Below are positions 17,790 through 45,275 of a DNA stretch of 64,000 nucleotides, piece by piece (the first letter of the stretch is position 1; the number at the start of each line of letters is the position of its first letter). The notes below the pieces were generated by a model that was not told the DNA's origin, did not search any database, and saw nothing but the letters and a program-made list of their open reading frames with translations. The translations under genes were made by a program, and so were the position numbers. The DNA comes from Escherichia coli (lineage in GTDB: Bacteria; Pseudomonadota; Gammaproteobacteria; Enterobacterales; Enterobacteriaceae). The stretch lies in the NCBI RefSeq assembly GCF_016026235.1, contig NZ_CP065613.1. One strand, written 5' to 3'.

Positions 17790-19091
17790 ATGAAAAAACT
17801 GTTTATCCAGTTTTACCTGTTATTGTTTGTCTGCTTCCTTGTGATGTCTCTGCTGGTTGGGCTGGTGTACAAATTTACCGCCGAACGCGCGGGCAAACAG
17901 TCGCTGGATGATTTGATGAACAGTTCGCTGTATCTGATGCGCAGCGAATTGCGTGAGATCCCCCCACACGACTGGGGTAAGACGCTGAAAGAGATGGATT
18001 TAAATCTCTCTTTCGATCTGCGAGTCGAGCCACTGAGTAAATACCATCTTGATGATATTTCCATGCACCGACTGCGTGGCGGCGAAATTGTCGCCCTGGA
18101 CGATCAGTACACGTTTTTGCAGCGTATCCCGCGCAGCCACTACGTGCTGGCAGTTGGTCCTGTTCCTTATCTTTATTATCTCCATCAGATGCGATTGCTG
18201 GATATCGCCCTGATCGCTTTTATTGCTATTTCCCTCGCCTTTCCGGTGTTTATCTGGATGCGTCCGCACTGGCAGGATATGTTAAAACTGGAAGCAGCGG
18301 CGCAACGATTTGGCGATGGGCATCTCAATGAACGTATCCACTTTGATGAGGGTTCGAGCTTTGAACGACTTGGTATCGCATTTAACCAGATGGCGGACAA
18401 TATCAACGCCTTGATTGCCAGCAAAAAACAGCTTATTGACGGTATCGCTCACGAACTGCGAACACCGTTAGTGCGCCTGCGTTATCGACTGGAGATGAGC
18501 GATAACCTGAGCGCCGCCGAATCCCAGGCGTTGAATCGTGATATCAGTCAACTTGAAGCTTTAATTGAAGAGCTGCTGACTTATGCCCGACTCGATCACC
18601 CACAAAACGAGCTTCATCTTAGCGAACCAGACCTGCCGTTGTGGCTGTCAACGCATCTGGCAGATATTCAGGCAGTAACGCCCGATAAAACGGTACGGAT
18701 AAAAACGCTCATGCAAGGCCATTATGCGGCGTTGGATATGCGCTTAATGGAGCGCGTGCTGGATAATTTGCTCAATAATGCCCTGCGCTACTGCCATTCA
18801 ACGGTTGAAACCAGCCTGCTACTGTCGGGGAATAGAGCGACATTAATTGTTGAGGATGATGGCCCAGGGATTGCCCCAGAAAACCGCGAACATATCTTTG
18901 AACCTTTTGTTCGCCTCGATCCCAGCCGGGATCGCTCAACCGGCGGCTGCGGGCTGGGGCTGGCAATTGTCCACTCTATAGCACTGGCAATGGGCGGTAC
19001 GGTTAATTGTGACACCAGCGAACTGGGTGGTGCCCGCTTCTCGTTTAGCTGGCCGTTGTGGCATAACATCCCGCAATTTACCTCTGCTTGA
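17790..19091 (+). CDS. rstB: sensor histidine kinase RstB
   Basis: 433-aa ORF; two TM segments, HAMP, H-box (GIAHELRTPL) and ATPase G-box motifs. Confidence 0.9.
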   Translation: MKKLFIQFYLLLFVCFLVMSLLVGLVYKFTAERAGKQSLDDLMNSSLYLMRSELREIPPHDWGKTLKEMDLNLSFDLRVEPLSKYHLDDISMHRLRGGEIVALDDQYTFLQRIPRSHYVLAVGPVPYLYYLHQMRLLDIALIAFIAISLAFPVFIWMRPHWQDMLKLEAAAQRFGDGHLNERIHFDEGSSFERLGIAFNQMADNINALIASKKQLIDGIAHELRTPLVRLRYRLEMSDNLSAAESQALNRDISQLEALIEELLTYARLDHPQNELHLSEPDLPLWLSTHLADIQAVTPDKTVRIKTLMQGHYAALDMRLMERVLDNLLNNALRYCHSTVETSLLLSGNRATLIVEDDGPGIAPENREHIFEPFVRLDPSRDRSTGGCGLGLAIVHSIALAMGGTVNCDTSELGGARFSFSWPLWHNIPQFTSA

Positions 19092-26268: not shown

Positions 26269-26281
26269 TTCACAGCCAAAA

Positions 26282-26312
26282 CGCCGGAGGTTTTTCTCTC
26301 CGGCGTTATTTC
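26282..26312. terminator. bidirectional terminator between convergent ydgA and uidC
   Basis: Hairpin cgccggag-gtttttct-ctccggcg followed by ttatttctt; lies between two convergent stop codons. Confidence 0.65.
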
Positions 26313-27616: not shown

Positions 27617-30849
<3,233 letters not shown>

Positions 30850-31100
30850 TTAACCAATTCTGTGTTGCACACAGTTATCTGTGAGAAACCCATGGAAGAG
30901 AAATGGAAATAAAAAGAACTGACACCGCGATCAAAAAACCAAAAACTGCAATACCCACAGCGTGATATTGATCGCATTAATCTTTAAAACGGCGTTGACA
31001 GAAGCCATAAAATAAGCAACCGAACGTTCGTTCGAGCATATTGGGAACGATAAACTCTCATGACATATGGCTACGGTGAATATTTTTGGGGGGAATTCTC

Positions 31101-32394
31101 CTGAGGGATCCCCAGAAAATTTAGTAAACCATTATCATATTGGTATACCGTTGCTGTAGAACTTTCAGCCCTGCGTCAAGTGACAGTGTGTTTAGTATGA
31201 GTGGAGAATGTCGAATCACATTCTCCGCCAGTTTTAATAACGAGATGACTCGCCTGTGCTTCACTGTATTTGCCTGATATTTATGATGTATCCCTTTGTT
31301 TTCCAGGCTGAAACCGCTTAACCACATAATGATACTGGCTAATGTTGCGATCAGACTCAATACCGTGACCCGCCCGGATGAATGACTGGCACCAAACCGT
31401 AGTCCAAATCCCCAGCGAGGATTTTTTTCATCCCTGAAATTTTGCTCAATTTGCATTCTACGGCTGTATAATTTCATTACCTGTTTTGGCGAGAACTCAG
31501 TACTGTTTGTGAAAATAAACCATGGTGATTTCCCGGCAGTACGAGCTTTAGCCGTCACCGATGGTCTGGTTGCTCTTTCCTTCGAGCGTTTAAATCTACG
31601 ACCTTTAGGCTTACTTTTATAAAGATAAAAATGCCCTTCATGTTGTGCATTTTTATCTCGACCCAGCAGGCCTTCACCTAAATAAATTGCTGTCGTTGAT
31701 GCTTTTGTGCCTGAGTCCGACACCTTTTCCCAGCCATTACCAACATTGTAATAATGATTGCCCAGTACCCGGCAAATATAGGTCCAGCCACGGGAGCGGA
31801 GCTGTTGGAACCATCGCCCCTGAAAACCGGCATCTGTAATAACAATGACATCAGTCCCGGGGGAAAAGCACTCAGCAAGCGATTCCAGAAAACGCTCATG
31901 TACATCTGCATTCGCTGTCTGTGATGATGGAACGACACAACTCATCAACGGTAAAGAACGCCCGTCACATGCCAGGCTTGCCCGCAAAAGCTGAAAACGA
32001 GAGGCATGATAAGCACTCCAGTCAATGAGTATCACAACACGAGACATTCCCCGCGTAATCTTTTGGGTAATTCGCTGAAAAATGGTGGAAACCTCATTTT
32101 GCAAATGTCGATTCCCCAACAGTCGATCCACCCGCTTTATTTTGTTTTTAACTGATGCCGTACCGGTTAAATGACGCCCGATACTGGTAAGTGTGAGGGA
32201 AGCGCCATTTATTACAGCATTAGTTGCGTCAATCAGTGATTTTTGACGGTAAAGATGCAAAGGGGCCAGTATGTTGTTAAGGAAATTTTGGCATAATGAA
32301 CGTGCAGGCATAGTGGTGATCTCCTTGAAATTGTTAGCACAATCAATTAGATCACATCTCACTATGCCTGTCTTGTTTTCTGGGGATTCCTCAG
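31101..32394 (-). mobile_element. IS10-like insertion sequence (IS4 family) inserted between uidR and uidA
   Basis: Left end CTGAGGGATCCCCAGAAAAT and the reverse complement of the right end CTGAGGAATCCCCAGAAAAC form an 18/20 imperfect inverted repeat resembling IS10 termini (CTGA-N3-ATCCCC); the element is flanked by a direct repeat GGGAATTCTC (31091-31100 and 32395-32404); it carries a single DDE transposase gene; length ~1294 bp. Confidence 0.85.
31121..32311 (-). CDS. IS4-family (IS10-group) DDE transposase
   Basis: ORF 31121..32362; alignment by eye to IS10 transposase shows conserved blocks KIKRVDRLLGNRH, IDWS (D), TDAGF (D) and YSRRMQIEQNFRDEK (Y-2-R-3-E-6-K signature); the likely start is the internal ATG (MPARS...) preceded by GGAG, giving 396 aa, which aligns with the IS10 Tnp start. 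Confidence 0.85.
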   Translation of the reverse strand: MPARSLCQNFLNNILAPLHLYRQKSLIDATNAVINGASLTLTSIGRHLTGTASVKNKIKRVDRLLGNRHLQNEVSTIFQRITQKITRGMSRVVILIDWSAYHASRFQLLRASLACDGRSLPLMSCVVPSSQTANADVHERFLESLAECFSPGTDVIVITDAGFQGRWFQQLRSRGWTYICRVLGNHYYNVGNGWEKVSDSGTKASTTAIYLGEGLLGRDKNAQHEGHFYLYKSKPKGRRFKRSKERATRPSVTAKARTAGKSPWFIFTNSTEFSPKQVMKLYSRRMQIEQNFRDEKNPRWGFGLRFGASHSSGRVTVLSLIATLASIIMWLSGFSLENKGIHHKYQANTVKHRRVISLLKLAENVIRHSPLILNTLSLDAGLKVLQQRYTNMIMVY

Positions 32395-32489
32395 GGGAAT
32401 TCTCCGATCCCGGCTAGATTGTATTTTGTACAGGGAAATTAAAGTATGAAACGCGGGCACAGTTATCACCAGCCCGCGAAATGAGAGGA

Positions 32490-33080
32490 TCAGGATGCGG
32501 TTAAGATACCGCCAATCATCGCGCGTAATCCCTGAGCAAACGACGCTTCACGCGCCAGATCTTCCGCTTCGATATCGGCCAGTACACCGTAGGTCAGATC
32601 CAGCAGTAAACGTGAAGTCATTGACGTGTTGATGTCTGGGCTTATCTCGCCTTTTTGCTGGGCATCACGCATCCGCTCGGCAACAAATTCAGTGATCGTC
32701 ATATGCTTATTTTTAAGCATGGCGGCGACCTGTGGGTTACGCATCCCTTCCGCCATAATTTCGACCACCAGCGCCCGTTGCCCAAAGGCTTCATGGGTGA
32801 GAGAGACAATAGACTCGACCATATAGTCAACAAAATGAATCCCTTCAATCGGTTCCCGGAAACGGGCCAGCGCCCTCTCCTGGTCCTGTAAGATAATCGC
32901 CTGAATCAAGGCTTCTTTGGAGATGAAATGGTGATAGAGCGTCCCGGGACTAATGGCGCAGGATTTACAGATGGCTTTCATCGAGGCACTGTGAAATCCA
33001 TTTTCTGAAAAAATCTCTCTGGCAGCATTGAGGATCCGGGTCCGTGTCGGTTGTGCTTCAGTCTGCATGTTATCCATCAT
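32490..33080 (-). CDS. uidR: TetR-family repressor of the glucuronide operon
   Basis: 196-aa ORF with N-terminal TetR HTH; upstream of and in the same orientation as uidA. Confidence 0.9.
   Translation of the reverse strand: MMDNMQTEAQPTRTRILNAAREIFSENGFHSASMKAICKSCAISPGTLYHHFISKEALIQAIILQDQERALARFREPIEGIHFVDYMVESIVSLTHEAFGQRALVVEIMAEGMRNPQVAAMLKNKHMTITEFVAERMRDAQQKGEISPDINTSMTSRLLLDLTYGVLADIEAEDLAREASFAQGLRAMIGGILTAS

Positions 33081-42386: not shown

Positions 42387-45275
<2,889 letters not shown>

Follow-up and report, generated by a model that had tools for sequence, protein, structure and literature searches.

An ISEc60 insertion with a 10-bp target-site duplication at a palindromic target between uidR and uidA of Escherichia coli

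Described relatives and the element in the uidR–uidA spacer

The definition of the IS4 family of insertion sequences includes a Y-2-R-3-E-6-K signature of the transposase and a target duplication of about one helical turn, and the IS10 subgroup of this family is listed with a length of 1200–1350 bp, CT ends, and a direct repeat of 9 bp (PMC2266710, Table 1). Palindromic targets are documented for Tn10 (9 bp, GNNGCTNAGCNNC) and for IS231A, which has the target GGGNNNNNCCC and generates an 11-bp duplication, and the termini of the P element have been described as restoring the target motif (PMC2577343).

We analyzed an insertion in the spacer between uidR and uidA of Escherichia coli, which is part of a 64-kb stretch of DNA that is referred to as the window in its full length. 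The features of the locus are the following:

28987–30798, minus strand: uidA (beta-glucuronidase), an intact open reading frame of 603 aa, with its start codon 302 bp from the insertion
31090, no strand: left arm base G of the 12-bp target motif, unduplicated and equal to the last base of the element; of 51 flanks of the ISEc60 subgroup, 40 have G at this position (-11)
31091–31100, no strand: left copy of the target-site duplication confirmed below, GGGAATTCTC, 10 bp, read directly and present as a single copy in the empty site
31101–32394, minus strand: ISEc60, 1294 bp, fitting the IS10 subgroup of the IS4 family; several RefSeq E. coli genomes and plasmids contain copies that are 100% identical to it
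31101–31119, plus strand: terminal inverted repeat beside uidA, CTGAGGGATCCCCAGAAAA, from repeat finding and a pattern scan
31121–32311, minus strand: transposase gene, 396 aa, with the ATG start as in RefSeq WP_001111632.1, from the open reading frame and profile matches
32376–32394, minus strand: terminal inverted repeat beside uidR, CTGAGGAATCCCCAGAAAA on the minus strand, from repeat finding and a pattern scan
32395–32404, no strand: right copy of the target-site duplication, GGGAATTCTC, 10 bp, read directly
32405, no strand: right arm base C of the target motif, unduplicated and equal to the first base of the element
32490–33080, minus strand: uidR (repressor), an intact open reading frame of 196 aa, with its stop codon 85 bp from the right duplication copy

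A megablast search recovered 1294-bp copies with 100% DNA identity that are annotated by NCBI PGAP as 'IS4-like element ISEc60 family transposase', and by this identity to copies so named, the element is ISEc60. Identical copies are found in CFSAN029787, in RMDEC and VL46 strains, and in FDAARGOS_943, which carries ISEc60 at about 38 places. Only 14 of 5426 complete E. coli genomes contain an ISEc60 copy with at least 80% coverage, and in the literature searched, ISEc60 is named by just two papers, neither of which goes beyond a passing mention. The inverted ends of 19 bp agree at 18 of the 19 positions, and with up to three mismatches allowed, no other place in the window shows the pattern of the end (0.01 expected by chance). 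The open frame of the transposase extends to a GTG at 32362, corresponding to 413 aa.

As expected for the IS4 family, ISEc60 contains a single open reading frame for a DDE transposase with the Y-2-R-3-E-6-K signature (YSRRMQIEQNFRDEK, aligned with IS10A), and its duplication, here 10 bp, corresponds to about one helical turn. The transposase matches the NCBIfam IS4-family model NF033591 with 360 bits at a cut-off of 152 as well as Pfam DDE_Tnp_1 (PF01609), and the DWS, TDAGF, and Y-2-R-3-E-6-K blocks are conserved in an alignment with the transposases of IS10A and ISSfl1. By its size (1294 bp within 1200–1350 bp), its 5'-CT ends (CTGAGG...), and the similarity of its transposase, ISEc60 fits the IS10 subgroup, from which it deviates in that it duplicates 10 bp, occasionally 11, instead of the listed 9 bp. 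No PDB sequence matched the transposase at E ≤ 0.01, and hence there is no sequence-based link to the Tn5 transposase.

The closest named relative is ISSfl1 from the Shigella flexneri virulence plasmid pWR501, with a transposase that is 52.3% identical to that of ISEc60 and with the same kind of end, ...GGGGATCCCTCAG, of which only the right one was recognized in the pWR501 stretch compared. After ISEc60 and ISSfl1, the best named transposase matches were IS10A and ISVsa5, with 36–37% over 85–89% of the length in pairwise hits only. IS10, IS10A, and ISVsa5 share with ISEc60 the 5'-CTGA...ATCCCC termini, a single DDE/YREK transposase of about 400 aa, the size range of the subgroup, and a symmetric target motif, but IS10 duplicates 9 bp where ISEc60 duplicates 10 bp, and the IS10/Tn10 target GCTNAGC differs from the GGGNWWNCCC of ISEc60. 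The IS10A copy compared has unrelated flanks, GCCGAGCA and TGCTGAACG, and the 9-bp rule is taken from the literature. An earlier reading of the window, in the following called the original prediction, had framed the element in terms of IS10. This framing had to be given up, as the compared IS10A copy has 1328 bp (IS10 about 1329 bp) versus the 1294 bp of the element, the IS10A transposase, although alignable end to end, is only 35.5% identical, and the RefSeq name is ISEc60. The impression of an IS10 arose because the ends are so similar: CTGAGGRATCCCC of ISEc60 matches 12 of the first 13 bases of the IS10A ends, which are CTGAAGAATCCCC and CTGAAGGATCCCC (CTGAAGRATCCCC).

In its target, ISEc60 also resembles IS231A from Bacillus thuringiensis, an IS4-family member of the IS231 subgroup that shares the GGG-spacer-CCC arrangement and whose duplication spans the whole motif. 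ISEc60 likewise gives 11 bp when the spacer has five bases (GGGATTTTCCC). However, IS231A differs from ISEc60 by its subgroup, its CAT ends, its duplication of 10–12 bp, and its larger size (PMC2266710), and the resemblance is one of behavior and not of membership.

Junctions and the empty site

Both copies of GGGAATTCTC directly abut the inverted ends of the 1294-bp element, and the junctions read ...TTTTTGG GGGAATTCTC / CTGAGGGATCCCCAGAAAA ... TTTTCTGGGGATTCCTCAG / GGGAATTCTC CGATCC.... Direct reading thereby bore out the original prediction that the 10 bp at 31091–31100 and at 32395–32404 are identical, and the GAATTC that it had pointed out is present in the block. The probability that 10 nt match by chance at two fixed positions is about 4^-10, or roughly 1e-6. 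The exact direct repeat comprises 12 nt, GGGGAATTCTCC, at 31090–31101 and 32394–32405, because the terminal C and G of the element equal the adjoining target bases, and the same coincidence causes the inverted repeat to seemingly run into the flanks, with arms of 30 nt at 90%. The repeat period between the two duplication copies is fixed at 1304.

For the empty site, positions 31101–32404 were deleted in silico, and the resulting 1000-bp reconstruction was searched against the 5426 complete E. coli genomes. In 5412 of these, K-12 included, at least 80% of the reconstruction was covered in one piece, and the best matches were 99.9% identical over the 1000 bp and annotated as uidA and uidR. K-12 MG1655 and strain E2865 have one copy of the motif each, ...GGGGGGAATTCTCCGA..., also read as ...TTTTGGGGGGAATTCTCCGA.... 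In a BLAST comparison, the window was collinear end to end with K-12 positions 1662000–1732000, and the segments flanking the element overlapped at K-12 1696362–1696373, which is the 12-mer. The element was the only large insertion or structural difference from K-12 across the 64-kb window. As the exact empty site contains a single copy, these comparisons confirm that the repeat is a true target-site duplication from a transposition event. The original prediction had proposed such a comparison with K-12 MG1655 and relatives, and the outcome was as anticipated, an uninterrupted spacer with one copy of the repeat. Its further claim of a genuine transposition, and neither a rearrangement nor an assembly artefact, agrees with the exact empty site and with the presence of the same structure in three independent complete assemblies.

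The insertion follows the stop codon of uidR at a distance of 85 bp and leaves 302 bp to the start codon of uidA, which is downstream of it, with the transposase gene oriented towards uidA, and no terminator-like site that could serve uidR was found at the target. The uidR–uidA spacer holds a clean, recent, and simple insertion of an intact ISEc60, and both genes are whole. The insertion is an ordinary event that is already catalogued in public annotated genomes. For the annotation of the window, the label IS10 changes to ISEc60 and the expected duplication from 9 to 10 bp.

Duplication length and target preference

At seven further distinct E. coli sites, complete copies of ISEc60 are flanked by 10-bp duplications. 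Duplications of this length were found at GGTAAATCCC, GGGGAAACCC, GGGCTACCCC and its reverse complement, GGGATTTTCC, GGGATAACCA, and GAGAAATCCT, and GGGATATCCC is a 10-bp ISEc60 duplication inside mscL. At a plasmid hairpin, GGCGGGGATTTTCCCCGCC, in which the G-run and the C-run are five bases apart instead of four, L136 has an 11-bp duplication, GGGATTTTCCC, as well, and L138 has the reverse complement of it, GGGAAAATCCC, with opposite orientations of the IS in the two. A scan of species-representative genomes gave 97 stretches with the 19-bp end, in Photorhabdus, Xenorhabdus, Serratia, Kosakonia, Pragia, Arsenophonus, Erwinia dacicola, and others. Among the complete copies of these relatives, 10 bp are duplicated in L006, L014, and L053 (Photorhabdus) and in L024 (a Pluralibacter metagenome-assembled genome), all of which share the 19-bp ends, and the length is unambiguous in L006 and L053, where the neighboring bases differ from the C and G of the element. 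Exceptions among the relatives are L025 with 7 bp and L090 with 9 bp, the 9-bp copy being deleted. Judged by these copies, the normal duplication of ISEc60 is 10 bp, occasionally 11, and the ISEc60 clade departs from the 9-bp duplication that is listed for the IS10 subgroup (PMC2266710, Table 1). The 9-bp norm of IS10, which the original prediction had applied to this element, does not hold for it.

In many other ISEc60 copies, the match to the junction query began already some 12 nt outside the element, which was a first hint of a target preference. Flanks were collected from E. coli, Kosakonia, Erwinia dacicola, and 30 metagenome stretches, and ends were kept if the interior was at least 70% like ISEc60. 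The resulting 51 unique flanks are partly dependent, as in some cases both sides of the same insertion are included, and a single genome may be the source of some of the metagenome contigs. At positions -11 to -8, G was found in 40, 46, 44, and 46 of the 51 flanks, T or A predominated at -6 and -5, and at -3 to -1, C was present in 48, 39, and 46 flanks, with T at -2 in 10 of the 51. According to these alignments, the target of ISEc60 and its closest relatives is G-GGGNWWNCCC-C (written also GGGNNNNCCC), which is symmetric about the center of the 10-bp stagger. With C in 46 of 51 flanks at -1 and G in 40 of 51 at -11, these positions are target bases and do not belong to the element, and therefore the 12-bp and 8-bp readings of the duplication are out. 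The target in the window, GGGG-AATT-CTCC, has one deviation from the consensus, the T for C at -2, which is the minor variant seen in 10 of 51 flanks.

A log-odds matrix was built from 46 flanks, with every copy from the uidA site excluded, and used to score the two strands of the window in its reconstructed empty form. The true site ranked second of 62,684 positions, with a score of 24.4 at a mean of -28 and a standard deviation of 12. The top-scoring site, at position 18867 inside rstB, is empty in the window and also in the ISEc60-rich FDAARGOS_943, and the motif is therefore a preference and not a sufficient signal. As the outer G/C of the motif equals the terminal G/C of the element, each junction rebuilds the 12-bp motif. 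Head-to-tail ISEc60 copies that are one exact 10-bp block apart were found at two loci (L133, 590|601; L142, 3005|3016).

Relatives outside the ISEc60 subgroup have targets of opposite polarity, with a C-run followed by a G-run or GCG. The one flank of ISSfl1 that was read, CCTGAAGGGG, is likewise opposite to ISEc60, with the C-run first and the G-run last, and resembles in this respect the Photorhabdus and Xenorhabdus relatives. This opposite polarity argues for a reading of the sequence over the mere recognition of hairpins. Recognition of a hairpin rather than of a sequence was considered, as many targets are GC-rich stem-loops, but an extended stem is lacking in the window target and in several others, and a purely structural signal would not distinguish the opposite G/C polarities of the sister groups. 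In the searchable literature, we found no description of the target preference, the 10/11-bp stagger, or a hotspot; ISfinder may record part of this, such as the duplication length.

We are highly confident that the structure goes back to the transposition of one ISEc60 copy into the uidR–uidA spacer, with 10-bp staggered cuts at a preferred motif that made the duplication. Within this explanation, the sequence comparisons described above show the repeat and the empty site as well as what the element is, that 10-bp duplications are its rule, and which target motif it prefers, and we infer the cut-and-paste chemistry and the half-site reading from IS10, IS50, and IS231A. A single ISEc60 copy would thus enter the spacer, the DDE transposase would cut the target GGGG-AATT-CTCC with a 10-bp stagger, and the filling of the two single-stranded gaps would double the central 10 bp, GGGAATTCTC, on either side of the element. 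The site was not a random one, as the near-palindromic G-GGGNWWNCCC-C, centered on the 10-bp stagger, is selected, and such a near-palindrome would be expected for a symmetric two-subunit transposase complex that reads two half-sites. The identity of the element termini C...G with the outer bases of the motif gives rise to the 12-nt repeat, the extended inverted repeat, and the target-like junctions.

As the ends resemble those of IS10A, the size lies in the range of the IS10 subgroup, and the duplication listed for that subgroup is 9 bp, one could alternatively think of IS10 or an isoform with a true duplication of 9 bp, one terminal base having been miscounted. This is extremely improbable. 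Besides the length, the transposase, and the RefSeq name already mentioned, the target is unlike the Tn10 consensus, and since the period is fixed at 1304, moving both boundaries symmetrically yields 8 or 12 bp but never 9. The original prediction had arrived at 9 bp by counting the terminal C/G with the inverted repeat, but shifting both ends in this way leaves 8 bp; the 9-mers that abut the ends, GGAATTCTC and GGGAATTCT, differ from each other, and other copies have duplications of 10 or 11 bp. Just as improbable is the view that nothing was duplicated and that the 12-mer GGGGAATTCTCC belongs to the element, as the tip of a longer inverted repeat. The extension of the inverted repeat to 30 nt at 90%, which covers the 12-mer, and the many copies that match the window about 12 nt outside the end are in line with it, but it is refuted by the empty site in 5412 genomes, which already has one copy of the 12-mer. 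Moreover, the four central bases, and in some cases also the outer ones, vary between copies (GGGGAAACCC, GGGCTACCCC, GGGATATCCC, GAGAAATCCT), and the palindromic target preference accounts for the outward extension. An element of 1292 bp (TGAGG...CCTCA) with a duplication of 12 bp could be read from the exact 12-nt repeats of the window and of L024, and we consider this very unlikely as well. It would need every target to be G...C, even in sister groups with different targets, whereas L006 and L053 have repeats of exactly 10 nt adjoined by bases unlike the C and G of the element, and the base at -11 is not G in 11 and that at -1 not C in 5 of the 51 flanks, while the C of CTGAGG is always present.

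Occupation of the same site in other genomes

ISEc60 is found at the same position between uidA and uidR and in the same orientation in three RefSeq genomes, FDAARGOS_943, RMDEC364, and RMDEC332. The window strain is not in the collection of complete genomes, in which the best match to the junction was 99.3%. FDAARGOS_943 is the closest sequenced relative of the window, with 99.8% over 24 kb. Its uidA-side copy is arranged as GGGAATTCTC|IS|GGGAATGCCT, and a second copy beside ompG as GGGAATGCCT|IS|GGGAATTCTC next to uidR. These swapped duplication pairs point to an IS-mediated inversion by recombination between two inverted copies, and the window, with its intact pair, therefore keeps the unrearranged state. 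In RMDEC364 and RMDEC332, the IS has no differences in 1294 bp, and the flanks deviate from the window by 0.4–1.8%, with SNPs 56–63 bp from the left junction; these two genomes also differ from each other.

Independent re-use of one site by ISEc60 is proven, at the sequence level, for a hairpin site in a fimbrial operon, where two strains with identical flanks share the duplication but have the IS inserted in opposite directions. The plasmid hairpin GGCGGGGATTTTCCCCGCC was re-used likewise, again with the IS in opposite orientations. For the uidR–uidA spacer, the diverged RMDEC flanks together with the identical IS suggest a recurrent hotspot that was independently hit, which we regard as the simpler reading. 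It would also be conceivable that the insertions in the window strain, FDAARGOS_943, RMDEC364, and RMDEC332 all stem from one ancestral event and spread by descent or recombination without any hotspot, and we give this a smaller but appreciable likelihood. Position and orientation are alike in all four, the window and FDAARGOS_943 almost certainly share one event, given their 99.8% identity over 24 kb, and homologous recombination can shuffle flanks while gene conversion can keep IS copies identical. However, a single event does not readily account for RMDEC flanks that have diverged by 0.4–1.8% up to SNPs 56–63 bp from the left junction around an IS with 0 differences in 1294 bp, and the rank of the target as second of 62,684 positions as well as the re-use of the fimbrial site in opposite orientations also stand against it.

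As a joint reading, we lean slightly towards ISEc60 and its nearest relatives being a site-selective lineage of the IS10 subgroup. This lineage would make 10-bp duplications at a GGGG-N4-CCCC palindrome that is often the loop of a GC-rich hairpin, would make 11-bp duplications at a spacer of five, and would rebuild the target with its termini, which would permit head-to-tail re-insertion. Sister lineages that share the 19-bp ends would prefer CCC-N4-GGG, and the uidR–uidA spacer would be a recurrent natural hotspot that several E. coli lineages hit independently. The target preference modestly extends the well-known behavior of the IS4 family and is, like the 10/11-bp stagger and the probable hotspot, a by-product of limited weight. 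The palindromic target preference predicts landing sites and could aid the reading of IS expansion in ISEc60-rich E. coli, and ISEc60 might be a candidate for a semi-targeted insertion tool. As a side aspect, a weak promoter-like match, based on the consensus only, lies at 31160–31131 on the minus strand of the window and faces uidA.

Exchanged duplications and an inversion in the closest relative

In FDAARGOS_943, the closest sequenced relative of the window, two ISEc60 copies carry unlike flanks, and together they form the counterpart of window 31091-32404:
L002 3152-4445: ISEc60 copy with exchanged duplication
L147 2298-3591 (reverse complement): ISEc60 copy with exchanged duplication

The copy on the uidA side is flanked as GGGAATTCTC|IS|GGGAATGCCT. 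The copy adjoining ompG is flanked as GGGAATGCCT|IS|GGGAATTCTC, with uidR alongside. An exchange of duplications of this kind marks an inversion in FDAARGOS_943: two ISEc60 copies in inverted orientation recombined and flipped about 254 kb.

An IS1A copy interrupts uidC in the same genome (L150 34347-36389), and a second IS1A is found past the rearranged ISEc60 (L002 4557-5254). The uidC region of the window contains no comparable large insertion when compared with K-12.

Re-use of target sites by ISEc60

In a fimbrial operon (L135, L137; CS1-type major subunit and TcfC-like usher), the same 10-bp sequence GGGCTACCCC, which sits within the hairpin AAGGGAGGGCTACCCCTCCCTT, is occupied by ISEc60 in E. 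coli strains RMDEC332 and RMDEC364 in opposite orientations, with flanks that are 100% and 99.8% identical between the two strains. Likewise, the plasmid hairpin GGCGGGGATTTTCCCCGCC, which adjoins an antirestriction gene, holds ISEc60 in both orientations in several plasmids (L136, L138, L139, L141); two of these copies have a duplication of 11 bp and one has a duplication of 10 bp, and one more copy at this hairpin is decayed and has unequal flanks. Two further stretches (L133 590-601 and L142 3005-3016) show head-to-tail ISEc60 copies with just a single 10-bp block (GGTAAATCCC) between them, an arrangement that, going by its sequence, fits re-insertion into a target motif that would have been rebuilt by the end of the first copy.

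When the reconstructed empty window was scored with the ISEc60 target matrix (motif G-GGGNWWNCCC-C), a site within rstB (18866-18877, AGGGATTGCCCC) scored slightly higher than the real target between uidR and uidA; it carries no ISEc60 in the window and none in FDAARGOS_943.

Among the species-representative stretches (L006-L102), relatives with identical 19-bp ends and other interiors (Photorhabdus, Xenorhabdus, Serratia, Pragia, and ISSfl1) have flanks of reversed polarity, CCC...GGG or CCGC...GCG. Many of these flanks resemble terminator hairpins, such as AAAAAAGGGGCTTAGGCCCCTTTTTT in a Pluralibacter metagenome-assembled genome (L024).

Further features of the window

Two features lie near the uidA-proximal end of ISEc60:
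31131-31160, minus strand: weak sigma-70-like match (TCTACA, 18-nt spacer, GATAAT), a consensus match only
31201-31228, plus strand: hairpin of 11 base pairs with a T-rich tail after it, about 100 bp inward of this end

The putative sigma-70-like match sits just within the element and points outward to uidA.

Between ydgA and uidC, where a 29-nt repeat marks the junction (about 26279-26307), the window falls 181 bp short of the K-12 length and lacks K-12 1691400-1691551; this length difference probably reflects a variable intergenic repeat element. The tandem array of 96-bp repeats in rsxC (44613-45228) is longer than that of K-12 by one 96-bp unit.
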